A stretch of 64,000 bases of DNA from a virus, in the IMG/VR virus record IMGVR_UViG_3300014137_000003. One strand, 5' to 3'. The notes under the pieces are model-generated. The model made no database searches and had not been told where the DNA came from. It saw only the letters and a program-made list of their open reading frames with translations. Each line of letters starts with the position of its first letter. Positions within the stretch are counted from its first letter, which is position 1. The position numbers and the translations under genes were made by a program. This document shows, piece after piece, positions 1 to 64,000 of the stretch.

Positions 1-358
1 CAGCATATTTGAGTCCAATTTAAGTGGATATTTTGGTGGAAACGTTAAAAGGTCCCACATTGAAGACCTAGTAGAAGAGGGGTATGATTCGGTACTTTTA
101 ACCATTAGTGAGAAGGGTAGCATCGTATTACGTTTTAGTGGTAAATACTCAAGTATATTCTCCTTTAGGGGCTTAACCCAATTTCGTAGAGAATCGGAAA
201 AATTGAAGGATTTGGAAGGCTTGGTTTATGCTTTACTTACTGCTTGTGACTCTGCTGAGAAGGCTTCTAATATTTTAGTACCTAAGAGTTACAGTGTAGA
301 AGTTATAGCTGAAAGTCCAGAAGTCTTTTACCATAAGCTTCAAATACTAGAACAGTGA
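1..358 (+). CDS. C-terminal part of a hypothetical protein (gene starts upstream of window)
   Basis: Frame 2 open from base 2 to TGA 356-358; no motif recognised. Confidence 0.5.
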   Translation, partial: SIFESNLSGYFGGNVKRSHIEDLVEEGYDSVLLTISEKGSIVLRFSGKYSSIFSFRGLTQFRRESEKLKDLEGLVYALLTACDSAEKASNILVPKSYSVEVIAESPEVFYHKLQILEQ

Positions 359-388
359 TTACATTGGAAAACAAGAAGGAGTATCTAA

Positions 389-721
389 ATGTTTAAATTA
401 TCTAATGGTAAAGAGTTTTCTCGTCTAGTCCTTACTAGTTTTGAAACTACATTAGGTTATATTACTAAATCTCCTAGTAAGGGGTACTCTTTTAAGTTAC
501 TGAATTGTGAGTCTATGCTACACAAGTTAATGCTTGCAGGTCTTGATGAGTCTTATTCGAGCGAACAGATTCAGTCTTGGATGAGTGAACATTTGACAGT
601 AACTCAAACCAGAGCTAATCGAAGTGAATGTTACCCTAGTTGGTGTCGTACTATGGAAGACGAGATTTATGCAATAAGTTCTACAAAGGATAAGCCTGCA
701 AGGAGTTGGCATTATGAATAA
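389..721 (+). CDS. hypothetical protein (110 aa), overlaps the HipA-like gene
   Basis: ATG 389 with AAGGAG at 376-381; stop overlaps next start by 8 nt. Confidence 0.6.
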   Translation: MFKLSNGKEFSRLVLTSFETTLGYITKSPSKGYSFKLLNCESMLHKLMLAGLDESYSSEQIQSWMSEHLTVTQTRANRSECYPSWCRTMEDEIYAISSTKDKPARSWHYE

Positions 722-1508
722 TTATTCTAGCTTTGATGGAGCTCAAGCAAAATGGTCATCTAAGGGGATTTGGTACAAAAGAGACCTTCGAGGTGGTGAG
801 GCAGTAGCTGAGACTTTGGTGTCTTTATTCTTAGAGTCTTGCTTAAATGTTACAGACTTTAGGACAGGTAACTATGGTTATGTTCCGTATAGGGTATCCC
901 CTAACGACAAGCGTGTTTGTCTATCCCCTAATTTCTTAGAAAATGGTAAGACTTTTGTATCTTTGTATGAGGCTATGAAGTTACTTAAACCTAAGTGGTC
1001 TGAGCATGCCGACTTTGAAGGTAAGCTAGAGTATATAGATAGTGTTTATAGAGGAATACTAGGGCATTCTTGTAAGAACTGGCTACTTATGGTACTAACC
1101 TTAGATGTTATGTTTCGCAATACTGATAGACACTTATCAAATCTAGGTTTTGTATCTGATAGGTGGGGAAATTTGCAAGTTGCTCCTATCTTCGACAATG
1201 GTATGGCTCTAGGGGTATCTGAGGGTGCTTACTTCGATTTAGCAAACACTGTTTCGGGTCTTGGGTTTAGAATTAAACCTTATGAGTTAACAGTAAGATA
1301 CTTGGAGAAGTATATTAACCCTAGTTACTTTGCATTTAGTGTAGATAAGTTTATTAAATGTTTCGATAAGAACATACCTAAAAATAACTTATTACTGGCA
1401 TTTCTAAACATCTTGGTACGTTACTATCCTAAAGATGCCCTTGGGGTGGATACAAAGAAGAAGTTAGAAGAATATTTCGGACCTTTTAGTTCTAAGAGGT
1501 TTATATAG
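714..1508 (+). CDS. HipA-like Ser/Thr kinase domain protein
   Basis: FRNTDRHLSNLGF and VAPIFDNG resemble the HipA_C catalytic loop (DxHxxN) and metal-binding (aPxxD) motifs. Confidence 0.5.
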   Translation: MNNYSSFDGAQAKWSSKGIWYKRDLRGGEAVAETLVSLFLESCLNVTDFRTGNYGYVPYRVSPNDKRVCLSPNFLENGKTFVSLYEAMKLLKPKWSEHADFEGKLEYIDSVYRGILGHSCKNWLLMVLTLDVMFRNTDRHLSNLGFVSDRWGNLQVAPIFDNGMALGVSEGAYFDLANTVSGLGFRIKPYELTVRYLEKYINPSYFAFSVDKFIKCFDKNIPKNNLLLAFLNILVRYYPKDALGVDTKKKLEEYFGPFSSKRFI

Positions 1509-1516
1509 GTAGAAGA

Positions 1517-2038
1517 ATGGATAAAAAACGTTTCTTAAATTATAAACGCAACAACGAGAAAGTCTTAACAATTCAGGATTTGTATAAGACTTTTGTATCT
1601 CCACGTGCATCAAAATTTTCAAGGTATGATTTTGAACGTAGTAATACTGTTGTTTGCCCGTTCCATGACGATAATGACCCCTCTTTTGGTGTTATTAAAG
1701 GTAAGGATGGGGTAGATAGGTATCATTGTTTTGGTTGTGGTGTAGTTGGTAATTATATCGACTTCTACAGGGGTATCCAAAAAATCTTTAACTCCAGAAC
1801 CCTTACAGAGGAACGAGCTATCACAGAGATAGCAGAAAAGTTCTCTATTCCTTTAGATAGCTTGACTGTTAATGAAGAAGAAGTCGTCCTATCACGAGAA
1901 CAGCAATTAGAAGACTTTAAGAATAGGTACACTGTTGCTGACTTTGATAGGGACATTAGGACAGGTTTACTTTTAGAGAGACCTGTAGCTTATTACAACG
2001 CTAAGTTGTTAGAATTGATTAGTGAGGAAGTATTATGA
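1517..2038 (+). CDS. stand-alone DnaG-type primase zinc-binding domain (CHC2 finger)
   Basis: CPFHDDNDPSFGV...YHCFGCGVVGNYIDF is the CHC2 primase finger signature; no TOPRIM in this ORF. Confidence 0.7.
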   Translation: MDKKRFLNYKRNNEKVLTIQDLYKTFVSPRASKFSRYDFERSNTVVCPFHDDNDPSFGVIKGKDGVDRYHCFGCGVVGNYIDFYRGIQKIFNSRTLTEERAITEIAEKFSIPLDSLTVNEEEVVLSREQQLEDFKNRYTVADFDRDIRTGLLLERPVAYYNAKLLELISEEVL

Positions 2039-4734: not shown

Positions 4735-4878
4735 TTGGTTGAGCATATTGTTAAAATTGAGTGTCCAGATTGTGGTTATGTGAATCACTTAGGTCGTTAT
4801 GATGAAGAAGAATGCTTTAAGTGTGGTGCAGATTTGCACATAGCAGTTCAAGAAAGAACGAGAGGTAAAAAGGCTTGA
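4735..4878 (+). CDS. small zinc-ribbon protein (47 aa, below ORF-track cutoff)
   Basis: TTG 4735 to TGA 4876-4878 encodes ..ECPDCGYVNHLGRYDEEECFKCGADL..; two CxxC pairs; stop overlaps the ligase start. Confidence 0.35.
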   Translation: MVEHIVKIECPDCGYVNHLGRYDEEECFKCGADLHIAVQERTRGKKA

Positions 4879-6146
4879 GTACGGTAGTAGAAATTGGTGA
4901 ACTCTTACATAGCGTAGACGCCTATGGGGTATCCAGCTTACAAGAAGACCAAATCGAAAATCTTGAAAGATACATTCAAGAATGTAACGACGCAATGAAC
5001 AGCAATGACGAGCCTTTGGTAGAAGATGCAATCTATGATAAATTGGTAGAAGTTCTTACTAAGGTTCGCTCAGGTAGTCCTATTTTGCAGGAGTTGTGGT
5101 CTAAGGACTCCGAAGTTATTGGTTCTTTCAATGATTTGTTGGATAAGCACCCTATGGCGTCTATTCAGACAGTTAAGTCTTGGGAAGATGAAAACATTTC
5201 TAAATTCATCCAAAGAATGCCAGAAGTTTCATCTTATCTTGCAGCTTACAAGATTAATGGTCATGGTATTCGTATCGTTTATAAGAACGGGCAGATGGTA
5301 GAGGCTACAACTCGTGGTCGTTCTACTAATGGTCGTTCTATCCTAGAACACATGAAAATTCTTCTAGGTGAGTACAATGACTCCTTGGCTGATGAGGGCT
5401 TGGTAGAGGTTCGAGGTGAGTTGGCTCTACGTCTTGACCGTCTTGACGATGCTCGTGAATTCAATCCAACTCTTAAGTCGGCTTTCTCAGCGGTATCTTC
5501 TCTAATTAAGCCTAGTGCTACAGAGGAGGAAATTAAGTTACTTGATTTCCTAGCATATCGCATTTACATTGACGATTTTGAGTTCACCTCCCTCGAAGAA
5601 GTTTATACAACACTAGAGGGTTGGGGGTATAGCGTTCCTCAGTACATTTCTTTAGAGGATGTACCGAAAGATGAACTCTTCGAATCAATGCAGACAGTCG
5701 TATCAGACCTAGAAGAGAGTCTAGATGACTTCGGTTACTTCTGTGATGGGGTAGTTTTCGAGGCTAATGATAGTTTTGTTCGTGAAGACAACGAAGGTGA
5801 CGGAAAGTATCACGACTACAACCTAGCATTAAAAGTTAATTCTTGGTCACAGGATTTGTACACTGGGTATATTCAAGAGATTAAGTGGAAGCGTGGGAAG
5901 TCTAAACTTAGTCCAGTTGCAGTAGTTTCGGAATCTTTAGATAGCGATGAGGGTGTTTTAACAGTACAAGGTAATCGAGTTAAGAATGTACCTTTGTACA
6001 ATCCCAAAAACATTCTAGTCTTAAGTGCTTACTTGGGTTGTCCTATCAACTTTAAGTATGGGGGTGAAGCTGGGGTAGTTCCTTGTTTCCCAGATGGTCG
6101 CTTGTTATCAGAAGATTTTGTAGTTTATGATTTATTAGGAAAGTAG
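4875..6146 (+). CDS. NAD-dependent DNA ligase (LigA-type), N-terminal half: adenylation + OB domains only
   Basis: HPMASIQ, KINGHGIRIVYKNGQMVEATTRG (motif I, KxDG with D->N), VEVRGEL (III), CDGVVFEAN (IV), ALKVN (V), OB-like IQEIKWKRGKSKLSPVAVV; ends where the LigA Zn finger would begin. Confidence 0.75.
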   Translation: MSTVVEIGELLHSVDAYGVSSLQEDQIENLERYIQECNDAMNSNDEPLVEDAIYDKLVEVLTKVRSGSPILQELWSKDSEVIGSFNDLLDKHPMASIQTVKSWEDENISKFIQRMPEVSSYLAAYKINGHGIRIVYKNGQMVEATTRGRSTNGRSILEHMKILLGEYNDSLADEGLVEVRGELALRLDRLDDAREFNPTLKSAFSAVSSLIKPSATEEEIKLLDFLAYRIYIDDFEFTSLEEVYTTLEGWGYSVPQYISLEDVPKDELFESMQTVVSDLEESLDDFGYFCDGVVFEANDSFVREDNEGDGKYHDYNLALKVNSWSQDLYTGYIQEIKWKRGKSKLSPVAVVSESLDSDEGVLTVQGNRVKNVPLYNPKNILVLSAYLGCPINFKYGGEAGVVPCFPDGRLLSEDFVVYDLLGK

Positions 6147-6158: not shown

Positions 6159-6947
6159 ATGGTAAGTAAGAAAGAAAATCAAAATGCCCCTCAACAGTTG
6201 GGTGCACAGGTCATTAAGGTAGAGGTTTCTACTGTTGAACGACGTAAGGAGTTGTCTAAACCAACTAAAGATTTCTCGGTAAATGAGTTGGTTGTTTCCA
6301 ACCTTGTACGAGGTTTGGAGATGGCAATTGCTGAGAAAGATGCTGAGAAAGTTCTTGGGGATTCTTCTCTATTGGTTAAGTCTGAAGGAAAGACCTTGGT
6401 ATTCACTGCTGATATTATGTCGTTCCATGAAGATTTCATCGACTTGGGGTATGTTTCGATTGTAGGTGAGAAGGTAGGTTCTGTATTGACTCCTATTAAG
6501 GGTTCTATCTCAAATCTAGTTTCTGAGAAGTTTACTACGAAGTTGTCAGATATCAACTTCCAAGCTTTAAGTGGTAAACTTCTTCGTGGAACGACTCTTA
6601 TGTTTACTGCTAAGGTAGTAACGGAGTTGGGTATCGTTAACTTGGAAGACCTTACGGTTGAAGACTTTGGTTTCCGTTTGCTTAAAGAAGACCGTACAGT
6701 AGATACTCTTGCTATCTTCAATGACCTAGTTGACACTTACAACTATGAGTATTATGTAGTTGAGTCTGGTGTTCTAGTTAAGAACCAGTACAGGAATACT
6801 TCTTTGGATAGTTATTTTGAAGCTTTCAAAACCTCTGAAGACCAGAAACCTTTGGAGGAGGCTCTTAAGTACATCCTTGGCTCTTATGACGATAAGTACA
6901 AGAAATTGAAAGAAGTTCTTTGGGGTATCATCCGCCCCCAAGACTAA
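6159..6947 (+). CDS. hypothetical protein
   Basis: ORF track; no motif recognised. Confidence 0.55.
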   Translation: MVSKKENQNAPQQLGAQVIKVEVSTVERRKELSKPTKDFSVNELVVSNLVRGLEMAIAEKDAEKVLGDSSLLVKSEGKTLVFTADIMSFHEDFIDLGYVSIVGEKVGSVLTPIKGSISNLVSEKFTTKLSDINFQALSGKLLRGTTLMFTAKVVTELGIVNLEDLTVEDFGFRLLKEDRTVDTLAIFNDLVDTYNYEYYVVESGVLVKNQYRNTSLDSYFEAFKTSEDQKPLEEALKYILGSYDDKYKKLKEVLWGIIRPQD

Positions 6948-7030
6948 TATCACTTTTCGTAGTCTTATAAAATCTAGCAACCTTATCTTAGTGGATTTGG
7001 TTGTTTTCTATTTAGAAAGGTTTATTGATT

Positions 7031-8548
7031 ATGAGTGAAGAGTTAGTATTAGAAGAGGAAGTCCTAACAGATGAGGATTATAGCTCTGAAGAAGTTAGGG
7101 ATGAGGATTCTAGTTCTGAAGTAGATGGTAGAGACTTACTTAGGCAGGAAATGGAACAGGCTGTTAGTGGGAATACTGCTATTGGTGAGGAGTTTCAGGC
7201 TACATTTACAGAGGAAGAAAGGATTTCTTCTATCTTGAATTTGCGTTCTGACTCCTATACTTTGGAGTTGGGTAGGATAAATCTGTTGGAGTTGTCTCCT
7301 ACAGTTCCTTTGAAGGAGAGTCGTAAACAGACATATAAAGGTTTAACTCAGTCTGTTAGGGAGCTTGGTATTTTAACACCTATCCACGTAATGTACACAG
7401 AGGGGTATAAGCAATACCTTAAGGATGTTGAAGAAGGCTACGAAACGGAAGAGTGGTCTAAAGAAGAGTTTGGCGATAAGTATATCTTAATTGACGGTTT
7501 CCGTAGGGTATGGGCAGGTATTACTAATAAGATGCCTACTGCTCCAGCGGTAATTTGGGACTTCAAAGATATGGATTTAGCCATGGAGTTGCTAGTTCCT
7601 CTTAGTTTGTTGCTTAATCGAAGTCAGCATCGTGACTGGAAAGAAACTTGGGGCTTATATCAAATCTTAGAGACTACAGCTTTAATGACGCCAGCTACTT
7701 TAGAGTATTTACTTCAGCTCCAGCCAGGTGAGGCTATGAAGCTTAAGGACGTAATGCTCTGTGAGTATCCAGAAGTTATTGATGAGTTGTTATCTGAAGC
7801 AAAAACTTTGCAACAGTGTTATAACAACTTACAAAAACTCCGTAAAGAGGAAAACCAACTTGAAAGGGACGACCAACGAAGTTTGTCTGAAATCGAAGGT
7901 GCCGATGGGGTAGTCGGAGATATTACTGATGGTAATGGACAGTTATCTTATGATGAGGTTAAACAGCTCTTAGAGTTTGATGAATCTGACATTGAGAACT
8001 TATCAGATGAAGATTTCATCGACTTGGCAGGTGGAAAGAATGATGGGGTAGAGATTAACCGTAGAGCTGGAGAGGATATCCCAAGGGAACTTAAGCAAGC
8101 AGCTTTAGCACGGGATAACTATTCTTGTCAGATTAGTGGAACAGGTCTTAATAGTGGTCTTAAGATGACTATGGCTATGTCAGTTCTACAGGTTCACCAC
8201 ATTATTCCGTTGTATCTTGGGGGTAAGAATACCTTAGACAACTTGGTAACTGTTCGTATGGACTTGCATACGTGGATTCACGTTATTGAGCGTCTTGGTG
8301 GTAAGATTGGGATGTCTCCAGAAGAGTTTAAAGAACTTGAAGGCGTAGACAAGAGAGATTTGTTTGGTGCTTTGAAGTATGCGAAAGTTATTGTTGATGA
8401 GGCTAAACGTCAAGGTAAATCTACTACTGACAAGGCTTTGCAACAAGCGTCTTATGATGCAAGTCGTTTCAAAATGCCAGGAACAGACTTAAAAGAAAAC
8501 ATGGCATCTATACGAGACCATGAGGAGATGAAAGATGAAGTTTACTAA
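7031..8548 (+). CDS. ParB/Srx-like domain fused to an HNH endonuclease
   Basis: ILIDGFRRVWAG (ParB GxRR box); CQISG..VHHIIPLYLGGKNTLDNLVTV..H (HNH); acidic N-terminus; ATG 7031 (TTG 7025 alternative). Confidence 0.7.
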   Translation: MSEELVLEEEVLTDEDYSSEEVRDEDSSSEVDGRDLLRQEMEQAVSGNTAIGEEFQATFTEEERISSILNLRSDSYTLELGRINLLELSPTVPLKESRKQTYKGLTQSVRELGILTPIHVMYTEGYKQYLKDVEEGYETEEWSKEEFGDKYILIDGFRRVWAGITNKMPTAPAVIWDFKDMDLAMELLVPLSLLLNRSQHRDWKETWGLYQILETTALMTPATLEYLLQLQPGEAMKLKDVMLCEYPEVIDELLSEAKTLQQCYNNLQKLRKEENQLERDDQRSLSEIEGADGVVGDITDGNGQLSYDEVKQLLEFDESDIENLSDEDFIDLAGGKNDGVEINRRAGEDIPRELKQAALARDNYSCQISGTGLNSGLKMTMAMSVLQVHHIIPLYLGGKNTLDNLVTVRMDLHTWIHVIERLGGKIGMSPEEFKELEGVDKRDLFGALKYAKVIVDEAKRQGKSTTDKALQQASYDASRFKMPGTDLKENMASIRDHEEMKDEVY

Positions 8549-16312: not shown

Positions 16313-17294
16313 GTTAAGTTATTTTAAATACAATACTTCAGAGATGTCACCTTCTCTGATTGTAGCTATTAACGAAACAATTCAAGAAAATAAAGCCTAC
16401 GCTACGGTTATTTGGAAAAGTAGGGCTGATGATGCAATTGATGCTACTTTGCATAATGCATTAAAATATTATTCTCCAGACAAAGGAGAACTTCGTAATT
16501 ATATTATCTCTACTATGAAGAATATTCTCAAGAATAGTTTCAAGAAAGAGCACTCTACAGAAGATGAGACTCTAAACTTCTTAGTAGACTCTAGTCAAGA
16601 GGATAATATAAATTCTGAGTTGGATGATTTGCTTGAAGACTTTAGTAGTGAGGTATCTGAGTGTATAGTTGAGTTCCTACCGTATGTAGTAGAGGATTAT
16701 GAGTTCTTTAAAGAACTAAAAAGAAATAAGATGAAGTTTGACTATAGTGAAATTCTAGGTAAATATTCGTCTAAGACGATAGTTTCTGCATTGCAGGCTA
16801 TCACTACCATTTATTTACCTAAGGTTTCAGAGTTTATGTCTACTCCAGCTCTTCCTACAGTAGGGGGTATCGGAACTATTTCTGAAACTCTCCAGAAGTT
16901 TGAGGCTCCAGTAAAAGTAAGGAGTGTAGTTCAGCGTATAGCTTTGGTAGAAGGTTTCTCTACTAAGAGTCTTATCTCTATCGATTTAAATCAAGCTTCT
17001 TCCGAGGTCATTGATACAATTTATGCGGGTAATGAATCTCTAGTTTTAAATTTTGAAGGCAAACAATATTACAGGTCTCCAAAATGGGGTATTGTCTCAA
17101 AAGAAGAATTGGTACAATCCTTGAAAGAATTTTGTTTAAGTTATATTTGTAAACGTCATGGTTTTTTGGTTTCGGAGATTATTGGTGATGTTGTCTACCT
17201 TCTTGGGAACAGTGATAAGGTTAATATTTCATTGTTTGGCGTAGAGTGTGGCATCTCTTATGATATGGTAGCACGGAAAGAGGTTGTATGTTAA
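16296..17294 (+). CDS. hypothetical protein (start uncertain: 16296/16299/16305)
   Basis: ORF track; AAGGAG at 16286-16291. Confidence 0.5.
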   Translation: MVLLSKLSYFKYNTSEMSPSLIVAINETIQENKAYATVIWKSRADDAIDATLHNALKYYSPDKGELRNYIISTMKNILKNSFKKEHSTEDETLNFLVDSSQEDNINSELDDLLEDFSSEVSECIVEFLPYVVEDYEFFKELKRNKMKFDYSEILGKYSSKTIVSALQAITTIYLPKVSEFMSTPALPTVGGIGTISETLQKFEAPVKVRSVVQRIALVEGFSTKSLISIDLNQASSEVIDTIYAGNESLVLNFEGKQYYRSPKWGIVSKEELVQSLKEFCLSYICKRHGFLVSEIIGDVVYLLGNSDKVNISLFGVECGISYDMVARKEVVC

Positions 17295-20200
17295 AAGGTT
17301 ATTATCTAAGTCCTGACGGACACAAGGTCAACTTAGTTGGTTATGACTTTGATAGTTATATTACTTTAATTGCTAGTTGTAGTTCTATTAAGGACAAGCG
17401 TTTCCTAGATAGAGGGGTAGCTTTGAAGGATGGAACAGAGTACTATCCTTGGGAAGAGCTTTATGTCCAAGTAAATACTGGCGATATTAAGGTAGACGAC
17501 TTGAGGGTTGAAGGTGAAAAAACCAACTTTAATGCTGAAGCTTTCACTCGTATTGGCTCTATTATTAGGGGTATGAAGTCTATCTGTATTCCCCAAAGGG
17601 AAGAAGATTTCTATAATATCAACAATATGGAATCTTTTGGTAGTAAGTCTGTTTATACTTATAACTATTTTGGTCAAGAAATTACCTTGGTAGAAAACCA
17701 GATTGATAAGTTATCTTATTCTAATGGGGACGAGATGTTAATCTTAGAGGATGTTTACTCAGAACCAGTCCCTATGTCTAAGAATACCTCTACACAACGT
17801 AAGTATGGATTAGATTTGACTGAATTTTCTAGAACAGATGATTTATCCGTTGACGGGATGGACTTTTTCTTGTCTAAGAACATTGGTAGTGATGACGTTT
17901 ACTCTCTTGCAGAAATTGTAGAACGCAACCCAGACAAGTCTTATGCTTGGCTTAAAGACCGTTTCTATCACATCGTTAATGATTTGGAACTTTGGAAGAA
18001 GATTTCTAAACGTATTTGGAAGCACCCTGACGTAGTTGCGTTCGATACGGAAACCACTGGTCTTAATATTACCTTTAAGTCAATTACTGGACAAGGTGAC
18101 CAGTTGGTTGGGTTGGTATTTTCTATTGAAAGTACGGCATCTGAGAAAGAAAAGATTAAACTTAAAAATCTTTTTGGTGATCCATTGTACGGTGATTCTT
18201 GGTATATTCCTATTAAACATAAGAACATCAAAAACATCGTTCCTCAGCAAGAGGTTAACAAGTTTATTGAGGTGTATGTTAAACCCCTTCTAGAGAAAAA
18301 AGAAATTGTCTGCCATAATGGTTCTTTCGATGCCAAGGTAATGTTTATCTACGGTGTTAAGATTAACCTTGTACATGATACGTTGATTCAGCTAAGGTTG
18401 TCTTACGGTGCTGAGAATACTCTTATGAAGCTAGGTTTGAAGCCTAATGCAAAAAGGTTCTTGGGTAGGGACAGTTTTGAGTTGAGTGACTTTGTAGAAG
18501 GGAAATGGGGTAGTGGAGACGTTACCTTTGCAGACCTTCCTTATGAGTCCGTTAAGTACTATGCGTGTCCCGATACTGACTCTACTTTGGCTTTACATAA
18601 ACTAGCAGTCAAAGAGAACTGGTTCGATAAATGGGGTATGCGAAGGGTTTACGAGTTGGAGGTTGACTTTACTCTTGTAATTGCCTATCAAGAATTCTTC
18701 GGTCACCACGTAGCCGTATCTAAGATTGCTAAGTTGCGTAAACAACTGCAGGAAGATGCAACTAAATATTCTAATAAAATCTTTGAAATTGCAGGTTATA
18801 GTCTTAACTTACGTTCTCCTGCCCAACTTAAAAAGTTATTCTTCGAAGAGTTAGGTATGCCAATACTTGAATACACCAATAGTGGAGCTCCTAGTACCTC
18901 TAAGGACGCTATGAAGAAGTATCTCTCTTATAAAGACGAGAATGGTAAACTTATGTACCCTATCGCAGATTACTTGTTGAAGTATCGTGATGCAGCTAAG
19001 TTGCTCTCAGATTTCATTAAGAATATTGATACAATTTCTACACCTGATGGGTTCATGTTCCCAGGAGTTAAGCAGTTCTTGGAAACTGGTCGTTTGTCGG
19101 TATCTAACCCTAACTACCAGTCTTACAATGACACGGTCAAGAAATATATCGCCCCTCGTAAGGGGTACTACATGATGGACTCGGATTATTCATCCGTGGA
19201 AATTCGTATCATGATGTCAATGGCTCAAGAGAAGCCTATGATTGAATATCTATTCGACCCAGACTCAGATTATCATACTTTAAAGGCGTCACAGATGTTC
19301 TCTATTCCTTATGAGTTGGTATCTAAGAAACAACGTGGAGCAGCCAAGGGGGTTAACTTTGGTATCGTCTATGGTATGGGGGATGCCTCATTAGGTGAAA
19401 ACGTTACTGGTAAGCGTAGTGCGGAATCTACTAGGTATGGTGGACAGTTGCGTAAGCTTTACTTTAAAGGTATGGATGTAACAGAAGATTTCATTGCTAA
19501 GAATCTAGAAAAGGCAGTAGAAAATAGGTATGCAGAGACTTTCTTTGGTAGACGACGTTATTTCCCTCCGACTATGCGTATCGGTTCGGTTAAGCGTCAA
19601 GGGGGTAACCACCCAATCCAAGGAACGGCAGCGGACTTGTATAAACAGGCAATGGTAAACCTTTATAATGCTATCATTGATAAAGGTTGGTGGGGTAAGT
19701 TCTTACTTCCTTGCTTTGTCCATGATGAGATCGTTATGGAAGCCCACAACTCTATTAACCCAGCTCACGCTCTTAAACTAGTTCAAGATAGCTTAATGCT
19801 CGACATCGAAGGTTGGTGTCCTTTGTATATTGGTTTTGGTTACGGTAGTCATTGGTATAATGCCAAGAAGACTGAGGTACCAGTACAACTCCAACAAGAG
19901 TTCGTAGACAAGTATGGCGAAAGTGGATTCCCATTTTGGGACGGTAATATCCATAACTTGTATGCATGGGAAGTTAAGGAAATTTACAACTACTGGGTTA
20001 ATCGTATTAAGGACTACATGAAAGACCCTAAGAATACTGGAACGGTTATTTCACCTGTTATCTCAGGTTTCTTGTTTGAGGTTATGCCTTATGTAAGTTC
20101 TCTAGGTAAGCTTAAACAAAAGGCTGAAGAGTTGTTGAAGTTTGCAACTTTCCTTAAAGATGAGCCAGATTTAACTGAAGAGGAATTGACTCTCTTGGTA

Positions 20201-20947
20201 GACGGTTACGAAGAATTACAGAAGTGCGGTGTCCATTTAGATAAACACACTGAAAAATTCTCTGAGTTCTTTGATGATATTAATATCAGTCTTGGTGATA
20301 AGGACGAGTTAGAAGGATTTAATATCCCAGTATATAAGAACATCTTATCAGAAACTTTCAATGACATGGATAAGATTAAAGAAGCTATCTCCAATGTTAT
20401 TACTGTTTGTGAGGAGGTGCTATCTGAGGAATTCTTACCACACCTTAAAACTACTGAAGTAGAGTTAGGGGGTATCAAGGAAAACTTGGTTGCTTTCGGT
20501 AAGGCTTTTGGTTGTGAGGATTTAGTAGAAAAAGCTAACTTGCAGGAACCTCATTCGGTAGAAGTAGAGGAGAAAGCAGTAGAAGAGACATATGAACCTC
20601 AACTTGATGATGTGCCAAAAGAAGAGTTGATGAAAGAGTACTTAGACGGATTTGGTTACTATCGTGACTATGATGAGCGTACTCTTTACTTCGATGGTAC
20701 TAATGATGCCTTGTTGAACTATATGGTAGGGTATCTTCAAAAGAATGGAGTTCTTGCTAAACGTGATGGTGATGCTTATGTAAAAGCTAAGAATAGCTTT
20801 GAGTCAGGTTCTGCTGAGTACACTCTAGTTAAGTTCGTAATTACAAAAGATGGGGGCTTACATAAAGCTAGTTTGTATCTTCCATCAACTCAAGCTAGTC
20901 GTTCTTGTACGATGTGTCTTAAGGTTAAGCGGCAAATTGGGGCTTAG
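17288..20947 (+). CDS. family A DNA polymerase with 3'-5' exonuclease domain and ~300-aa C-terminal extension
   Basis: VAFDTETTGL (Exo I), HNGSFDAKV (Exo II), YACPDTDS (Exo III), DYSSVEIRIM (motif A), RGAAKGVNFGIVYGMG (motif B), VHDEIV (motif C). Confidence 0.9.
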   Translation: MLKGYYLSPDGHKVNLVGYDFDSYITLIASCSSIKDKRFLDRGVALKDGTEYYPWEELYVQVNTGDIKVDDLRVEGEKTNFNAEAFTRIGSIIRGMKSICIPQREEDFYNINNMESFGSKSVYTYNYFGQEITLVENQIDKLSYSNGDEMLILEDVYSEPVPMSKNTSTQRKYGLDLTEFSRTDDLSVDGMDFFLSKNIGSDDVYSLAEIVERNPDKSYAWLKDRFYHIVNDLELWKKISKRIWKHPDVVAFDTETTGLNITFKSITGQGDQLVGLVFSIESTASEKEKIKLKNLFGDPLYGDSWYIPIKHKNIKNIVPQQEVNKFIEVYVKPLLEKKEIVCHNGSFDAKVMFIYGVKINLVHDTLIQLRLSYGAENTLMKLGLKPNAKRFLGRDSFELSDFVEGKWGSGDVTFADLPYESVKYYACPDTDSTLALHKLAVKENWFDKWGMRRVYELEVDFTLVIAYQEFFGHHVAVSKIAKLRKQLQEDATKYSNKIFEIAGYSLNLRSPAQLKKLFFEELGMPILEYTNSGAPSTSKDAMKKYLSYKDENGKLMYPIADYLLKYRDAAKLLSDFIKNIDTISTPDGFMFPGVKQFLETGRLSVSNPNYQSYNDTVKKYIAPRKGYYMMDSDYSSVEIRIMMSMAQEKPMIEYLFDPDSDYHTLKASQMFSIPYELVSKKQRGAAKGVNFGIVYGMGDASLGENVTGKRSAESTRYGGQLRKLYFKGMDVTEDFIAKNLEKAVENRYAETFFGRRRYFPPTMRIGSVKRQGGNHPIQGTAADLYKQAMVNLYNAIIDKGWWGKFLLPCFVHDEIVMEAHNSINPAHALKLVQDSLMLDIEGWCPLYIGFGYGSHWYNAKKTEVPVQLQQEFVDKYGESGFPFWDGNIHNLYAWEVKEIYNYWVNRIKDYMKDPKNTGTVISPVISGFLFEVMPYVSSLGKLKQKAEELLKFATFLKDEPDLTEEELTLLVDGYEELQKCGVHLDKHTEKFSEFFDDINISLGDKDELEGFNIPVYKNILSETFNDMDKIKEAISNVITVCEEVLSEEFLPHLKTTEVELGGIKENLVAFGKAFGCEDLVEKANLQEPHSVEVEEKAVEETYEPQLDDVPKEELMKEYLDGFGYYRDYDERTLYFDGTNDALLNYMVGYLQKNGVLAKRDGDAYVKAKNSFESGSAEYTLVKFVITKDGGLHKASLYLPSTQASRSCTMCLKVKRQIGA

Positions 20948-20972
20948 TCCTCTAAGTAGAAAGGGGTATTAA

Positions 20973-22397: not shown

Positions 22398-22405
22398 GTC
22401 GTAGG

Positions 22406-22430
22406 GGGTATCTTTGGGATACCCTTTCTT
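22406..22430 (+). terminator. rho-independent terminator
   Basis: GGGTATC/GATACCC stem then TTTCTT. Confidence 0.5.
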
Positions 22431-24363: not shown

Positions 24364-26898
24364 ATGAAAGTTGCAGACATTGTAAGAGAAATAGATAAAC
24401 GGGAAGCTCTAGAAAACTGTATCCTACACGGCAAGGTTAGGGGTATTATCAGCTCCCCTAATGGTTTTGAGGGGTTATCTCCTTCTAGTGGAGATTGGGC
24501 AGTTTTAGAACTTTATGCTATCACTGTAAAAGGTGAGAATTACTTTGGTTTTGGGGAAACAACCTTTTTGACTCCAAGGTCAACAATTCTTTTTGTACTT
24601 GAAGATAAGTCTTTTATTGGCAAGTTAGTAACTGTCTCAGGAAAACGTGGTAGAGGTATTAAACTTAGACGTCAAAAAATGCAGAACAATCGTTTAGGTT
24701 ATTTTGTTCCAGTGTTCGCTAAAGGAAGAGATTTATGGAAACTTGAACCTAATACCGTAACTCCATTTAAAGGTACCACATCTAAAGAAATCGACTTACT
24801 CTTTAAGGAGTACGAAAAGTTTGAGCCTTATTATCTAACTATGACTAAGTCTGTTGTAGGTTTTGATGGAACTGACTTCTATAGCTACATTGAAGATGAT
24901 AATAAAGTAAGTAGAGGTTCTTTGTCTTATATTACAGATTTCACTCAAAGGGTAAATCGTGAGAAAGAGGAAGAACTCAGTTCCTTGTTGAGTAAAGCGA
25001 AAGGTGAAAGGGATTTTTTCCTTTCAAATGTATTAGATAGCAATCCTTTGTCTGAAAGCATTAAAAATGACTTCGTAAAGTCCTTTAACAACTTAAGAAA
25101 AGTATCTAGTAGGTTAATCCCAGAAACGACTTCTAGGTTTAAGGATGTTGTCTCTAAAAAGGTCAAAACTTATTCTGAGGCTTTATCCTTATTGATAGGG
25201 GTAGATTCTTTAAAACACTTAGAGTCAGACATTTTGCTTGAAGACCCCTTTTACTATTATCTATCTAAGGAGTTAGATTTTGACACTTGTGAGATGTTGT
25301 TCTTTATTTCATCTCTTATTAGGGGTGAAGATTTTACGGCTCCACCTAAGTTGAGGGGTATCTCAGTATTAGTTGAAGGGGCTAGACGTGTCTATAAGAG
25401 ACGTGGTCATTCTATGTTGTTGAATACTTTATCTTCTCCATTAACTTGTAAGGTTAGTGATACTATGATTTCTCGGTATAAGAGTTCTCAAAGTCCTTTG
25501 AATAGCAAGTCCTTGAACGTACTAAAATACATGGGGTATCTTAAATACTCAAATTACAGGTCTTTGTACACTGACGGCATGTATTACTCTTTAGGTAAAG
25601 AGGTTGATTATCTCTCTTCAGCAGTATCTTCAGGTTTTGTTGTAAATCCTAAGAAGTCTTACTATTCTGTATATGACTTGGCAGAGTTGGAGTTAAACTT
25701 AGTGAAATTGGCTAGTAATTTTGCTAGTGTTGAGTTTGATTACGAGATGTGGGATATCCAACCCCATATCGACTTGGTATCTGAGAACTCTAAACGTCCT
25801 TTCAATACTGATATGCTTAGGTCAATGATTAATTTGAATACGGGTTTTGGACTCTTTTTAGGTACTAATCACAGTAGGCTCGACGAGGTAAAAGAAGTAA
25901 TTTTACGTTCTTGTAGAGCTAAGGGGTATCTAAGCAAACTCTTAGTTGTGGATAGCTCATTCAAACCAAGTACGTGGTATAAGGGGTATGAGGGAGTTTA
26001 CTTTCAACACATTAACCACGTAGCTTATAACGTAGAGCAAGGTAACTCATGGGAAGAGCCTAGTTTGGTATTTGTAAATAATGCACATACTATGTCTTTA
26101 CAAGAGTTAATTTCTATTTTAGAGTACGTTCCTACTGGTTCGGCAGTATATTTATTTGGTAGTCCTTGGAGTGGTGTAGGGGTACTCAGCTCTTTGGCTA
26201 GTAGGTATTCCTCTGCTATTGTATTACCAGAAGCTGGTGGTTCTGCTTTAGAGTCTACCCTAGCAACCGTAAGTAGTGGCTTAACATTTTCTATTGGTAA
26301 AAACCTGAAATTGAGTAGTGTTCCCTCTGCTAATACTCTGTTTTCTATTCGTGATGTTCTTAAAAGGACTTTTCAAGCGGGTATTCCTAAGAAGGACGTA
26401 CGAGTTATTAGTGACCTTGAGAAATCTATGTCTTGGAAGTCTTTGGGTGAGCGATTGTTAAGTGACTTCACTTCGGTAGAGGATATGTCTGAAATTGAGT
26501 CTGGAACTCTTGTGTTTTCTGAGGGAGTTACTTATGACTTATTTTATAAGGGTTCGTTTATTGGTAGTTGGTCTAGTGCTTTCTTAGGAACTTTAGAAAC
26601 TTATGACGGAGATTATGCAACTGTTAAATTAGGTAATGGTGACTATAGTCTTAGAATTGTTAAAGACGGCTTGAGCCTCGGTTATTGCCTACCGTCTCAT
26701 GTTGCTGAGTTATACCCAGTTCGTGTATCATTTGTAGTTTGTCAACGTAATCGTGGTCAGATTAGTCGAGAGTCTGTTGTACGTTCTATTAATGCCTCTC
26801 AAGGGGTATCTTTTATTGGGGATACATCTCTTGTTGTTGGTGCTTACAGTAGTCGAACTTCTCTACCAGTGACTTTAATTGAAAAGGTTCTAAAATGA
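24364..26898 (+). CDS. RecD/Dda-like SF1 helicase-related protein with degenerate ATPase motifs
   Basis: VRSINASQGVSF resembles SF1 motif VI (T.HKSQGSEF); VFVNNAHTM sits where Walker B DExxM would be; no GxGKT/S seen. Confidence 0.3.
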   Translation: MKVADIVREIDKREALENCILHGKVRGIISSPNGFEGLSPSSGDWAVLELYAITVKGENYFGFGETTFLTPRSTILFVLEDKSFIGKLVTVSGKRGRGIKLRRQKMQNNRLGYFVPVFAKGRDLWKLEPNTVTPFKGTTSKEIDLLFKEYEKFEPYYLTMTKSVVGFDGTDFYSYIEDDNKVSRGSLSYITDFTQRVNREKEEELSSLLSKAKGERDFFLSNVLDSNPLSESIKNDFVKSFNNLRKVSSRLIPETTSRFKDVVSKKVKTYSEALSLLIGVDSLKHLESDILLEDPFYYYLSKELDFDTCEMLFFISSLIRGEDFTAPPKLRGISVLVEGARRVYKRRGHSMLLNTLSSPLTCKVSDTMISRYKSSQSPLNSKSLNVLKYMGYLKYSNYRSLYTDGMYYSLGKEVDYLSSAVSSGFVVNPKKSYYSVYDLAELELNLVKLASNFASVEFDYEMWDIQPHIDLVSENSKRPFNTDMLRSMINLNTGFGLFLGTNHSRLDEVKEVILRSCRAKGYLSKLLVVDSSFKPSTWYKGYEGVYFQHINHVAYNVEQGNSWEEPSLVFVNNAHTMSLQELISILEYVPTGSAVYLFGSPWSGVGVLSSLASRYSSAIVLPEAGGSALESTLATVSSGLTFSIGKNLKLSSVPSANTLFSIRDVLKRTFQAGIPKKDVRVISDLEKSMSWKSLGERLLSDFTSVEDMSEIESGTLVFSEGVTYDLFYKGSFIGSWSSAFLGTLETYDGDYATVKLGNGDYSLRIVKDGLSLGYCLPSHVAELYPVRVSFVVCQRNRGQISRESVVRSINASQGVSFIGDTSLVVGAYSSRTSLPVTLIEKVLK

Positions 26899-29569: not shown

Positions 29570-29588
29570 GGTAGAAGATGTTAGATTT
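29570..29588 (+). repeat. 19-nt direct repeat, right copy (includes the primase-core start codon)
   Basis: GGTAGAAGATGTTAGATTT, identical to 28440-28458. Confidence 0.8.
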
Positions 29589-30366
29589 GCAGGAGTTTGG
29601 GCTTTACGCTCAGGACTTTAAAAAGGTTTGGGGGTACTTCGAGACCTTAGATAGTGGTACCACTTACGAAGAGTTGTGTTCTCTAAGGTTGTATCAAGAC
29701 CCTAAAATGGTAGAAGTATTAAAGACAGTAGGGTTTATAAAGTTACCAGATACGGTAGATTTAGAGCCCTTGAAGGAATTACAGAGTTATTCGAATTTAG
29801 GGCTAGAAACCAAAACAGGCAGATGTTTGCTTGAAGGTAGGTTTGTTTTCCCAGTTAAGGATATGTTAGGTAATATCTTAGCTTTGATTGGTTGGTTTCC
29901 AGATGAAAAGAAATACATCACTACACCAAGTAAGTATTTCCACCGTTCGAGTTTATTCTTTGGGTTAGAGCAGTTATCTACTCACGGTAGGGAGAATATT
30001 GTATTCGTCTGCGAGGGAATCTTCGATGCCTTGTCTCTACGGTCTATGGGGTATCGAGCGTATGCCACTATGGGTGTTGAGTTATCTAGGCAGAAGAAGT
30101 TGATGTACTCCTTGCTCGGAGGTAGGGTAGTAGGGGTATCCGACCGAGATAGGGTCGGCAATTCTGTTAGGGATTATGATAGGTGGAGTTGTTGGAAGTA
30201 TCTAACTTGGGTTGGTGAGTTTGATATGTCTGAGGTAGATGAGGAAAACCTAAAAATCAAGGACATAGATGACTTAGTTAAGCTCTTTGACCCAGTAGCC
30301 TTGAAAGAAGTTATTGATGAAGAGTTAGCGACCAACCAAAATAAAATAGTTAAGTTAGAATTGTAG
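29578..30366 (+). CDS. DnaG-type primase catalytic core (RNA-polymerase + TOPRIM) without zinc finger
   Basis: RFVFPVKDMLGNILALIGW; VFVCEGIFDALSL (TOPRIM Glu); GVSDRDRVG (DxD). Confidence 0.65.
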   Translation: MLDLQEFGLYAQDFKKVWGYFETLDSGTTYEELCSLRLYQDPKMVEVLKTVGFIKLPDTVDLEPLKELQSYSNLGLETKTGRCLLEGRFVFPVKDMLGNILALIGWFPDEKKYITTPSKYFHRSSLFFGLEQLSTHGRENIVFVCEGIFDALSLRSMGYRAYATMGVELSRQKKLMYSLLGGRVVGVSDRDRVGNSVRDYDRWSCWKYLTWVGEFDMSEVDEENLKIKDIDDLVKLFDPVALKEVIDEELATNQNKIVKLEL

Positions 30367-36037: not shown

Positions 36038-36054
36038 TGCATAGGGGTGATTTA

Positions 36055-47574: not shown

Positions 47575-47641
47575 AGTTATATAAGTTAGTTCGGTAATAC
47601 TAACTTATAACTCCTTCCCTTGGGGGTATTTACCCCTTTTA

Positions 47642-56830: not shown

Positions 56831-56833
56831 TTA

Positions 56834-57535: not shown

Positions 57536-57677
57536 TGGGGTATAGCCAAGTGGTAAGGCAGTAAGAGAACTGTGGAACGGAGGTTCGAATCCTCTCAAGA
57601 CGACTAGGTCGTGCTTGTAGCCAAGGGGTAAGGCTCACAGCTACTTATGACCGTGGGTTCGAATCCCACTACCTCGA
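57536..57677 (+). ncRNA. double tRNA-like 'dumbbell' RNA: two cloverleaf bodies joined through their anticodon stems, no anticodon loop
   Basis: Outer body: acceptor 57536-42/57670-76, D arm 57545-59, stem 57561-65/57644-48, T arm 57653-69. Inner permuted body: stem 57570-74/57636-40, T arm 57579-95, capped acceptor-like helix 57596-604/57608-17, D arm 57620-34. Both T loops are TTCGAAT. Confidence 0.6.
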
Positions 57678-57731
57678 TAGTTCAGTCCTTGTAAAGTGGT
57701 CTGTAACTACTTTGCTAAGTATCCTCTAATG

Positions 57732-61718: not shown

Positions 61719-61752
61719 ATATTTAAGATTATTAGGTTTTGGAGGTTGTTTC

Positions 61753-62484
61753 GTGAGGATTTACTATTTAAGCGACATGCATATAGAAAGCCCTGAGGGG
61801 TATCTATACGATTTAGAGGGGATATTACCTTTAGAAGAAAACCACGGGAAAGACTGGGTAGTAGTTGCAGGTGATATTTCTTCGAGTCCTTCTGTTGTTA
61901 GGGATATTCTAGGTTATTTAGCGTCTAAGTTCGCTCATGTTTTCTTTGTGATGGGTAATCATGAATATCGAAATGATTCCCCCTCAACTTACAAGAGTAC
62001 TGAAAAACTATATAAGGCTTTGTTATCTAGTATTAGTAACTTACACTTCTTAAATAATGAGGTGGTTGAAGTTGACGGTCTTACTGTTGCAGGTTCAACT
62101 TATTGGTATGAGTTGGCTGATAATTATAGTAAGGCTTGGTGGAAAACTTTTTCTAATGATTATGTTTATGTACACCGTGATTGGGATGACTCAAACAGAC
62201 ATCACGACCGTGACTTCAAGTTCTTGCAAAGTCTAAAGGATAGGAAGATTGACTTACTAGTAACTCACTTCCCACCGAAGAGCTTTAGAAAAGAGCGTAT
62301 AGAGGACCTAGAACTTCCCCCTATTAAAGATAGTGGTGTTCGTCCTCGTTACTGGATTTGTGGACATGAGCATGTATGTTGCGATGAGGACTTTAATGGT
62401 TCTAGGGTTCTAATGAACCCAGTGGGGTATCAAGATGAAGATACTTCTTATGTTGCAAGGTATGTGGACATTGAACCTATGTAG
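61753..62484 (+). CDS. calcineurin-like metallophosphoesterase (SbcD/Mre11-like)
   Basis: YYLSDMHIE (DxH), VAGDIS (GD), MGNHEY (GNHE), CGHEH (GHxH); GTG 61753 after GGAGG. Confidence 0.65.
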   Translation: MRIYYLSDMHIESPEGYLYDLEGILPLEENHGKDWVVVAGDISSSPSVVRDILGYLASKFAHVFFVMGNHEYRNDSPSTYKSTEKLYKALLSSISNLHFLNNEVVEVDGLTVAGSTYWYELADNYSKAWWKTFSNDYVYVHRDWDDSNRHHDRDFKFLQSLKDRKIDLLVTHFPPKSFRKERIEDLELPPIKDSGVRPRYWICGHEHVCCDEDFNGSRVLMNPVGYQDEDTSYVARYVDIEPM

Positions 62485-62522
62485 TTTTTAGGTATATCAG
62501 TTAAATAAAAATGGAGGTATAT

Positions 62523-63695
62523 ATGTCAAAGGGTATGTCTAAAATTCTTGGGTTAGAGCTTAAGAATTTTATGTCTATCAAAGAAGCTAAGTTAGTCTTT
62601 GATGAGACAAATATTATTAACCTTAAGGGTTATAACGATAGTGGTAAGTCTGCTATCACACGGGCTTTAGATGTTTTGTTGTTTGATTCTTATAAGCGAG
62701 CTCAGAAAAACTTTATCACCCACGGAGAGCATTATTTCCGTATTAAGTTGCACTTCGATGATGGCGTAACTATTGTGCGTGACAAGTATTTGAATGGCTC
62801 TAGTTTATATGAAATGTATTCCGAGGGTAGTCTCATCTTTAGCACTAAGGTGGGAAACACTTTAACTCAAGTTAAAGATGTCCCTCTTGAAATTAAAGAA
62901 TACTTGGCTATGACGGAGACCTCACAAGGTAATTACCTTAATAGCCAGTCTATTTATGACAAACAGTTTCTTATTCAAACGTCAGGTTCTGAGAACGTAG
63001 AACTCTTGAATGGGGTACTGAAGCTAAAAGAAACTGGTCTAGCAACCACTGCTATTAAGAACGATATTAATCAGTTATCTTCTAGTATTAATGGTATTTT
63101 AGCAGATATTGAGGCTATCAAAACTTCTCTTGAACGTTATGAAGATTTAGACGAAGACTTTATTCTCTTACTTTCTGACTTAGATAGTAAGTATGATGAA
63201 GTTGAACGTAAATACAATCGTCTAGCAGAACTAGAGGATTTACTTGTAGACATCTCTGAGTTGCCGGAGGGTGTTCCTGAGTTGTCTATGATTGACGGTT
63301 CTCTCTATTCTTCCTTGTTAGGGGTAGCTGAATCTGTAGAGGAGTTAGCTAAAATCAAGGAAATTCCTAATGTAGACAAGATTGACTATAATTTTTACCT
63401 TGATTTACTTAAATTATGGGAGTTGCAAAATTCTTATAAAAACGTCGACACTCTAATTTTGGATATTCCACTAATTGATTTTGGTATATTAAATTCCTTG
63501 AAAATTCTAGGGAATAGCTTTGAAGAATTGGTAGAAATTTCAAACATTATTAGTTCCCTTAGTGGTAGGGCTGAAGAGCTAGAAAATGAAAGTTCTGAGA
63601 TTCAGGAGTATGCTCGTGAGAATGGAATTTCTATTAGTAAGTGTGACAATTGTGGTGCTTTAGTTCAGGGTGTTGCAGGTCATGTGCATTTGTAA
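62523..63695 (+). CDS. SbcC/Rad50-like ATPase, N-terminal head + coiled coil, ending at a CxxC
   Basis: LELKNFMSIKEA..GYNDSGKSAITRAL (Walker A); long heptad-like region; ends ..CDNCGALVQGVAGHVHL; no signature or Walker B seen. Confidence 0.5.
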   Translation: MSKGMSKILGLELKNFMSIKEAKLVFDETNIINLKGYNDSGKSAITRALDVLLFDSYKRAQKNFITHGEHYFRIKLHFDDGVTIVRDKYLNGSSLYEMYSEGSLIFSTKVGNTLTQVKDVPLEIKEYLAMTETSQGNYLNSQSIYDKQFLIQTSGSENVELLNGVLKLKETGLATTAIKNDINQLSSSINGILADIEAIKTSLERYEDLDEDFILLLSDLDSKYDEVERKYNRLAELEDLLVDISELPEGVPELSMIDGSLYSSLLGVAESVEELAKIKEIPNVDKIDYNFYLDLLKLWELQNSYKNVDTLILDIPLIDFGILNSLKILGNSFEELVEISNIISSLSGRAEELENESSEIQEYARENGISISKCDNCGALVQGVAGHVHL

Positions 63696-63733
63696 TGTAA
63701 TTACTTAATATTAGAAAGTTTAGGTGTTATAAA

Positions 63734-64000
63734 GTGAAATTTAAAATCTTTAAGATGACTATTCGTGTTTATGACTTGGCAGTTTTCTTGTTCTTAGTGG
63801 GGTATTTCTTCCATAAGCCTTTCCGAGAATTGTTTGATAGTAGTCCTTATCTTGTAAAGGCTTTGGCTTGGTTATTAGTTGTTCTTTTCTTTTACTATTC
63901 TTGTGCATCTTGGTATCATGTAATCAAGAAGTCTATGATTAATGTACTTAAAAAAGAAGAGTCAGAAGCCTTAGAAGAAGAGAACTACGAAGAAGGCAAG
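63734..64000 (+). CDS. membrane protein, 5' part (continues beyond the window)
   Basis: GTG 63734 after AGGTG; two hydrophobic helices; open to the window end. Confidence 0.45.
   Translation, partial: MKFKIFKMTIRVYDLAVFLFLVGYFFHKPFRELFDSSPYLVKALAWLLVVLFFYYSCASWYHVIKKSMINVLKKEESEALEEENYEEGK

Follow-up and report, generated by a model that had tools for sequence, protein, structure and literature searches.

A polar hexamer, GGGGTA, on one strand of a large-phage genome, its conservation in the phage lineage, and its candidate readers

INTRODUCTION

Chi and KOPS are the textbook examples of polar, over-represented words in bacterial chromosomes, and both are tied to machines of the host. Chi words are short, G-rich, over-represented, skewed toward the G-rich strand, and spread for coverage (PMC3384302), and the Chi word of the Streptococcaceae is GCGCGTG (PMC5959072). 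Among phages, the T7 primase acts at 5'-GGGTC-3', 5'-TGGTC-3', and 5'-GTGTC-3', sites with a cryptic 3' base, and yields primers composed of A and C only (PMC2910064). Here we analyze the hexamer GGGGTA in 64,000 nucleotides of viral DNA from the IMG/VR record IMGVR_UViG_3300014137_000003; this whole stretch is referred to as the window, and the strand deposited is the + strand. A preliminary description of the window had noted, by eye, an excess of the word on one strand. We report that the word belongs to the known class of skewed, over-represented oligomers and yet is far denser, and that this stronger signal is owned by a virus lineage and not by its likely hosts. In the literature, we found no report of GGGGTA, nor of any lineage-specific polar word of such strength, in phages.

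RESULTS

GGGGTA is in excess in one orientation only

The element under study is the following array.

1..64000, + strand: GGGGTA array, 162 copies (268 copies of GGGTA), mean spacing of 396 nt, on the sense, G-rich strand

An exact tally for the + strand of the window gave 162 GGGGTA versus 2 TACCCC, 93 GGGGTAT versus 0 ATACCCC, and 268 GGGTA versus 20 TACCC. The tallies of the preliminary description, about 160 GGGGTA and 90 GGGGTAT, were thus close to the exact figures, and the strong asymmetry between the strands that it had reported is real; its statement that TACCCC occurs only once is not correct, as there are two copies, at 36504 and 47631. The window has a G+C content of 37% and a constant GC skew of about +0.2, with G exceeding C and T exceeding A on the + strand. 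All credible genes (the gene set comprises 85 predicted start codons), the 8 tRNA genes, and the tmRNA gene of the window are encoded on this strand.

The excess was compared with several null models. (i) Over both strands of the whole window, 164 copies were observed against 27.9 ± 5.4 in dinucleotide shuffles. (ii) Within genes, the 126 copies observed compare with 35.7 ± 4.9 after synonymous-codon shuffles in each gene, which hold the protein sequence, its dipeptides, and codon usage fixed, and with 44.4 ± 5.6 (z = 14.7) when the dinucleotide content is also kept exact. The excess therefore stays under codon- and dipeptide-preserving shuffles, and the two orientations are far from comparable in frequency. 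(iii) Free codon permutation gave 17 ± 4, which indicates that the order of amino acids itself is bent toward GGGGTA; the signal is strong enough to shape amino acid usage. Among all 6-mers in the window, GGGGTA has by far the highest z score (18.9). An artifact of composition or codon usage can be rejected, since three protein-preserving nulls fail to produce the excess.

The complement TACCCC is at chance level, with 1 or 2 copies observed and about 2.4 expected. It is thus not depleted, and the asymmetry is an excess of one orientation, not an avoidance of the other. An asymmetry that serves to evade type III restriction was also considered and rejected on these figures, as it is the forward word that is in excess, by 3.5- to 10-fold.

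The hexamer is specific, evenly spaced, and independent of reading frame

None of the 18 single-mismatch variants of GGGGTA is enriched (ratios of 0.13 to 1.54). Three near-cognates, GGGGAA, GGGGTT, and GGTGTA, are clearly depleted (|z| of 3 or more), and GGGGTC is nearly absent (1 copy versus 7.9 expected), as would be expected if near-cognates become converted into GGGGTA. Flanking bases have a modest effect: the best 5' base is a purine and the best 3' bases are T and then C, so that the optimum is RGGGGTATC, and GGGGTATC is enriched 7.3-fold. The copies are spaced more evenly than random placement predicts. The coefficient of variation of the gaps is 0.75 (0.99 ± 0.08 under random placement), only 6 gaps are shorter than 50 nt (19 expected), and the longest gap between GGGTA copies is 894 nt (about 1,470 expected). 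Coding DNA holds 2.35 copies per kb, compared with 3.5 per kb outside genes, the tRNA/tmRNA cluster included. In genes, the three codon phases hold 44, 39, and 43 copies, and no preference for a position along genes was found. Copies that illustrate these placements, together with the two antisense copies, are as follows.

1212..1217, + strand: copy in codon phase 0 (GGG-GTA)
6922..6927, + strand: copy in codon phase 1 (TGG GGT ATC)
6446..6451, + strand: copy in codon phase 2
20963..20968, + strand: copy in Shine-Dalgarno position, 4 nt before the ATG at 20973
22405..22424, + strand: copy forming the 5' arm of a terminator-like hairpin, GGGTATC-TTTGG-GATACCC followed by TTTCTT, as read from the sequence
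47623..47636, + strand: copy forming the 5' arm of a hairpin, GGGGTA-TT-TACCCC followed by TTTT; includes the antisense copy at 47631
36504..36522: antisense TACCCC at 36504, 7 nt ahead of a sense copy at 36517

The first three copies are those that the preliminary description had cited for the three codon phases, and they were found in phases 0, 1, and 2, respectively. The sites that it had placed upstream of start codons (20963, 44935, 48456, and 52133) and inside RNA genes (56686 and 57537) are all present as well. Both TACCCC copies lie in an inverted repeat with a nearby + copy, and two copies of GGGGTA form the 5' arm of terminator-like hairpins.

The RNA features that hold the last two sites deserve a separate mention.

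56449-56833, + strand: tmRNA (Rfam, 103.9 bits), tag peptide ANTVQPVEMAA, within the cluster of 8 tRNA genes
57537-57672: "dumbbell," two tRNA-like halves in tandem, both with segments resembling a D arm and a T arm

For the latter region, ARAGORN made no call, Rfam gave only a subthreshold tmRNA-like match (57625-57680), and the minimum-free-energy fold is no better than that of shuffles (z = -1.1).

Throughout the roughly 141 kb of window-related DNA described below, the word always follows the sense strand of genes and RNA genes alike, and this placement bears on a reading at the level of transcription. The word would then be recognized either as ops is, on the non-template strand within the transcription bubble, or as GGGGUA on nascent RNA, and it would maintain the processivity or the protection of very long co-oriented transcription units. 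The ops element of RfaH, GGCGGTAG, also contains GGTA. On the strand that carries the word, runs of T, at which transcription pauses or terminates, are strongly avoided (TTTTT, 49 versus 153), and 12 copies end 3 to 13 nt upstream of start codons, so that 12 of the 85 genes have GGGGTA in Shine-Dalgarno position. However, GGGGTG, which would pair better with the anti-Shine-Dalgarno sequence, is not enriched (ratio of 0.83), and canonical Shine-Dalgarno-like words are depleted inside genes. In addition to the lack of positional preference along genes, RNA accessibility at GGGGTA showed no excess over that at other G-rich hexamers. The density is highest between tRNA genes, where roles at the mRNA level make no sense; no NusG/RfaH-like or RNA-binding domain was detected in the approximately 60 window proteins scanned, for most of which Pfam and PHROG annotation gave no matches; and the known ops and nut signals occur once per operon. 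A transcription- or RNA-level role is consequently an unlikely explanation in our judgment. Simple pairing with the anti-Shine-Dalgarno sequence can be rejected, given the ratio for GGGGTG and the depletion of GAGGA and AAGGAGG within genes.

Other words are avoided in the window. On the + strand, TTTTTT occurs 6 times versus 45. Among Shine-Dalgarno-like words in genes, GAGGA occurs 82 times versus 135 and AAGGAGG 3 times versus 15. TCTGG is found 5 times versus 45, and CCTG and CTGG are likewise strongly depleted.

The word is conserved in a family of large phages

No close relative was found among GenBank phages, where nothing is 30% or more identical to the polymerase of the window. IMG/VR and metagenome assemblies, in contrast to GenBank, revealed a family of genomes of roughly 180 to 236 kb. 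For strand switches, we examined 131 kb of a sister genome that is about 97% identical and 10 kb of another assembly, together about 141 kb of a roughly 181- to 189-kb genome. All genes, and the word with them, keep to the + strand; beyond the window, this DNA has 186 GGGGTA versus 5 TACCCC. Neither an inverted gene block nor a flip in the polarity of GGGGTA was found in the 141 kb of sister genome and relatives.

Several observations document the conservation of the word. (i) Between genomes that are 97% identical, motif positions carry 7 substitutions versus 20.9 expected and 6 versus 20.5 expected and thus change about three times more slowly than average. (ii) In the polymerase gene, 5 to 7 of 10 sites are at the identical aligned position in relatives with about 70% protein identity, and the remainder turn over. 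(iii) Distant relatives, with proteins that are 39 to 50% identical, keep the word at ratios of 29:3 and 38:3. (iv) Small shifts in form are seen between clades: some have RGGGTAT, and a relative whose zinc-finger protein is 62% identical (L057) has NGGGTA at 1 per 140 nt, with a GGGTA ratio of 105:4. (v) In a relative with 30% G+C and a zinc-finger protein that is 33% identical (L056), GGGTA is the top 5-mer (43:2), and the 236-kb contig CAKAFX010000005.1 has a ratio of 85:8. The core GGGTA (RGGGTATC-like) is therefore polar and enriched in every relative examined, and it is conserved while proteins diverge to 30 to 40% identity and the G+C content varies between 30% and 39%. As controls, unrelated AT-rich phages with co-oriented genes and a similar GC skew contain 0 to 2 GGGTA per 2 kb. 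The slow change of motif positions, the independence of codon phase, the excess over shuffles that keep amino acids, codons, and dinucleotides, and the higher density outside genes show that selection acts on the nucleic acid and not on the protein, as the preliminary description had proposed.

Two side observations concern the relatives. CAKAFX010000005.1 was deposited within a genome bin of an uncultured Mogibacterium but is a phage of this family, which reflects either a binning error or a hint at the host. In the sister genome, a block at about 156.9 to 159.9 kb (L051:18300-20672 and L054) consists of small genes that are individually equipped with a sigma-70-like promoter and a hairpin terminator; its GC skew is lower (0.06 to 0.10) and it has fewer copies of the word. 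This block may be recently acquired or early-expressed DNA that is not yet "written" with the word.

The constant polarity over 141 kb also bears on whether the word loads and orients a double-stranded DNA pump, as KOPS and SRS do; either the packaging motor or a membrane ATPase of the FtsK/SpoIIIE family encoded by the phage would act as this pump. Both KOPS and SRS are polar words that are rich in G and highly skewed (PMC3384302), and outside the window, the phage does encode an ATPase of this family, in which the Walker A motif is intact and membrane segments lie at the N terminus. Its motor domain is followed by a tail of only about 35 residues, however, which leaves no room for a gamma domain of the kind that reads KOPS, and at the sequence level there was no Ftsk_gamma match at E = 10. 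The family also includes the protein-secretion ATPases EccC and EssC, which match the phage protein too, and for similar FtsK-like genes in Bacillus phages no polar word is known. KOPS are 7- to 8-mers that occur once per 1 to 13 kb and flip at the origin and dif, whereas the word described here is a hexamer that does not flip in the DNA examined. We therefore regard an orienting word for a translocase as very improbable.

The membrane-anchored ATPase itself maps to L049:12195-14396 (about 48.3 to 50.5 kb of the sister genome) and, in GenBank, has homologues in Bacillus, Staphylococcus, and Mycobacterium phages. Two further words, GTAGAAG (29:1) and GAAGAAG (29:4), are also polar and correspond to published KOPS or KOPS-candidate words of Streptococcus pyogenes and Lactococcus lactis; their bias could be a codon effect of Glu/Lys-rich proteins.

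The word does not match the words of the candidate host

Several sequence features point to a Gram-positive, Streptococcus-like host. A DUF1002 protein shares 55% identity with proteins of streptococci, the phage encodes GtfA/GtfB-type glycosyltransferases and an RNase HIII, and its relatives encode a sortase; canonical Shine-Dalgarno words are avoided in genes, and GATC is avoided as in the pneumococcal phage Dp-1. In loci of Streptococcus suis, which is a candidate host only, GGGGTA is not enriched (0 to 4 copies per 20 kb, below expectation), nor is it in Dp-1 (6 copies versus 8.9 expected). The Streptococcaceae Chi word GCGCGTG is absent from both strands of the window (0:0). A host Chi or a host KOPS can thus be rejected, as neither the S. 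suis loci nor Dp-1 nor the published Streptococcaceae words fit. The resemblance to Chi-like or translocase-orienting sequences that the preliminary description pointed out is, as far as a word read by the host is concerned, not supported on these grounds, given also the lineage-wide conservation and the missing FtsK gamma domain. Conservation in the lineage with small shifts between clades, along with the lack of enrichment in candidate-host DNA, argues for a reader encoded by the phage, and the absolute polarity argues for one that works on a single strand or moves directionally. We infer that the reader is phage encoded and acts on one strand.

Two observations on host interaction stand apart from the word. 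GATC occurs 24 times in genes versus 127 expected from synonymous shuffles (29 times in the whole window) and 8 times versus 180 in Dp-1, which suggests a host with GATC-specific restriction. At 35914-38800 and 40003-40965, the window encodes GtfA/GtfB-like glycosyltransferases, of the accessory-Sec type for serine-rich adhesins, and the DUF1002 protein; with the sortase of the relatives, these are host-surface genes on a lytic-looking large phage.

A Chi-like signal that is private to the phage is a separate matter. Such a word would be read as single-stranded DNA by a helicase-nuclease, either a phage enzyme or a host enzyme for which no cognate word has been described, would switch it from degradation to protection, and would label phage DNA as "self" where forks or ends are broken. 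A candidate reader is encoded in the window.

24364..26898, + strand: 844-aa family-specific protein with a RecD2-like SF1B helicase fold, candidate reader (Foldseek, E = 1.7e-8)

This protein has no GK[ST] P-loop, lacks the Walker A lysine, and carries NN in place of the DE pair of Walker B; a role as a scanner or clamp without ATPase activity is possible. In RecC and AddB, it is a dead helicase fold that scans for Chi (PMC3321194). The phage also encodes SbcCD-like and UvrD-like proteins, and the known host-type Chi is absent from the window, so that the phage would be without another Chi. GGGGTA has the traits of Chi words given above (PMC3384302): it is over-represented beyond composition and codon usage (126 versus 36 to 44 in genes; 164 versus 28 in the window), and its 162:2 skew is on the G-rich, T-rich strand, presumed to be the leading one. 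Against this stand its lack of over-representation in the S. suis loci and Dp-1, which shows that it is not a known host Chi; an identical core at 30 to 39% G+C, which speaks against a host-specific reader; the scattering of the candidate nuclease parts, which do not form one operon; a structural model of the RecD2-like protein that is only moderate (pLDDT of 55, TM score of about 0.2 to 0.36); and a density of 1 per 400 nt, ten times that of Chi in Escherichia coli. A phage-private Chi hence appears improbable.

The phage encodes a split primase that may read the word

The reading that we favor, tentatively and with a probability of about 0.3, is that, on the lagging-strand template, the split DnaG-type primase of the phage starts preferentially at GGGGTA. 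The following genes are relevant.

1517..2038, + strand: stand-alone CHC2 zinc ribbon of DnaG type, candidate reader (Zn_ribbon_DnaG, E = 5e-12)
29578..30366, + strand: primase catalytic core with DNAG_N and Toprim and no zinc-finger cysteine cluster (weak Pfam matches)
17288..20947, + strand: family A DNA polymerase (PolA), 1,219 aa
32995..33921, + strand: RNase HIII, for primer removal
4875..6146, + strand: NAD-dependent DNA ligase, for sealing Okazaki fragments or nicks

The CHC2 zinc ribbon is the template-sequence recognition module of DnaG/T7-type primases. In this phage, the DnaG-type primase is split, with zinc ribbon and Toprim core encoded by separate genes that are 27 kb apart. The Toprim core is 73 to 75% identical in distant relatives, and in a relative in which many other proteins are only 39 to 50% identical, the primase core (75%) and the zinc-finger protein (69%) are among the best conserved; the two parts rank high in conservation in the family as a whole. 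Nearby on the sister genome lies a gene for a DnaB-like helicase. The full set of lagging-strand enzymes is encoded by the phage.

By analogy with T7, GGGGTA (core GGGTA, optimum RGGGGTATC) would be a lineage-private polar word that the phage replication machinery reads as single-stranded DNA. The template 5'-GGGGTA-3' would be read 3' to 5', with the 3' A as the uncopied "cryptic" base; the T would specify ATP as the first nucleotide and the G run the C residues after it, and the product would be a stable pppACCCC primer, like the pppACCC made by T7 at 5'-GGGTC-3'. If forks and transcription proceed the same way, as they could in rolling-circle or unidirectional replication, the + strand alone would serve as the lagging-strand template, which would explain the absolute polarity. 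In DNA as AT-rich as this, chance alone would place such a hexamer roughly every 4 kb, and short Okazaki fragments would then call for enrichment and even spacing of the word. We infer both that the primase is the reader and that the + strand is the lagging-strand template.

A number of points weigh against the primase. (i) The direction of replication is deduced from skew and gene orientation only. (ii) In T7, which is the phage with pentameric primase sites that has been studied best, these sites have no strand bias and little enrichment (GGGTC, 39:55; TGGTC, 79:62; GTGTC, 43:42), so that there is no precedent for the enrichment of primase sites. (iii) A trinucleotide is normally enough for DnaG-type primases. 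(iv) No direct link between the zinc-finger protein and GGGGTA was obtained. (v) The ParB_N-HNH nuclease and the RecD2-like protein are conserved equally well. (vi) Because there is no inverted gene block in the 141 kb, a reading on RNA or on the non-template strand cannot be separated from one at the DNA level.

The nuclease named under point (v) is encoded near the NAD ligase in the window.

7025..8548, + strand: ParB_N plus HNH nuclease, possible strand-specific nickase (HNH match weak, E about 1e-5)

As a nickase, it would cut the + strand at or near GGGGTA, much as one strand of T5 virion DNA is nicked, and the nicks would be swivels or 3'-OH starts for strand displacement by PolA, to be resealed by the phage NAD ligase. 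Phage HNH nickases with asymmetric sites of 3 to 7 bp are known, and T5 too encodes a PolA, a NAD ligase, and an SbcCD-like nuclease. The genes for the NAD ligase and the ParB_N-HNH protein are directly adjacent in the very distant relative with 30% G+C (L056:2518-5387; 31 to 41% protein identity), which suggests that they form a functional pair. In the relative with the NGGGTA form, the nuclease is 74% identical and is the most conserved protein seen on that locus. The absolute one-strand polarity and the conservation across the lineage would also suit a phage-encoded reader of double-stranded DNA. To our knowledge, however, phages with nicked DNA show no enrichment of the nick sites, which are few in T5, and regular spacing is not required of such sites. 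About 450 nicks per genome would make the virion DNA very fragile, and the HNH match of the candidate is weak. We accordingly hold nick sites to be an unlikely answer, and starting sites for the phage primase stay the preferred one.

DISCUSSION

The preliminary description held that sequence alone cannot tell which role the word plays, and we agree. The probability that remains beyond the readings considered here belongs to something else. In a broader and rather doubtful view, an old lineage of phages of roughly 180 to 240 kb keeps a private one-strand DNA "code word," core GGGTA, every 150 to 400 nt or so and at a cost to its proteins; a phage-encoded primase, nickase, or dead-helicase scanner would read it, so that the replication or nuclease machinery could tell phage from host DNA without base modification.

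The consequences differ between the candidate readers. If the primase reads the word, this would be the first case known to us of a genome visibly written around a priming code, and it would give a ready-made, predictable specificity for an uncharacterized split primase. If the word is a nick site or a private Chi, it would amount to a sequence-based marking of the phage's own DNA. Whatever its reader, the word is a cheap and highly specific marker of this phage family in metagenomes, including contigs that were misbinned into bacterial genomes.

Five known systems may be compared with the word. (i) Like Chi (E. coli, GCTGGTGG; Bacillus subtilis, AGCGG; Streptococcaceae, GCGCGTG; PMC5959072), GGGGTA is short, G-rich, over-represented, skewed to the G-rich and presumably leading strand, and spread for coverage. 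The word itself is different, its conservation follows a phage lineage instead of a host lineage, and it is not enriched in candidate-host DNA. In T7, fragments of Chi are strongly polar words in their own right (GCTGGT, 44:2; TGGTGG, 37:1). (ii) With KOPS and SRS (GGGNAGGG, GAGAAGGG, and GAAGAAG of L. lactis; PMC3384302), it shares polarity, G-richness, and extreme skew, and the phage has an FtsK/SpoIIIE-family ATPase. In contrast to these words, it is a hexamer at 1 per 400 nt, no switch in polarity was seen, and no gamma reading domain is detectable in the phage ATPase. (iii) The EcoP15I sites of T7 are likewise an asymmetric word in one orientation (CTGCTG, 36:0) in a genome with all genes co-oriented. 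There, one orientation has been lost, whereas in the present phage TACCCC is as frequent as chance predicts and GGGGTA is in excess. (iv) T5 shares the specificity for one strand, and both gene sets include PolA, a NAD ligase, an SbcCD-like nuclease, a tRNA cluster, and an HNH nuclease. The nicks of T5 are physical features of its virion DNA, whereas the phage described here is known from assembled sequence. (v) The sites of T7 gp4 resemble the word in having a G run, a T, and what would be the "cryptic" 3' base; they are read as single-stranded DNA by a zinc finger and specify a primer of A and C only, as would be the case for the word if the primase reads it, and the phage has both a DnaG-type zinc ribbon and a Toprim core. 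The phage word, however, is a full hexamer, enriched about 10-fold and strictly polar, whereas the T7 sites are neither biased nor notably enriched, and unlike in T7 gp4, the zinc finger and the catalytic core are encoded by separate genes 27 kb apart.

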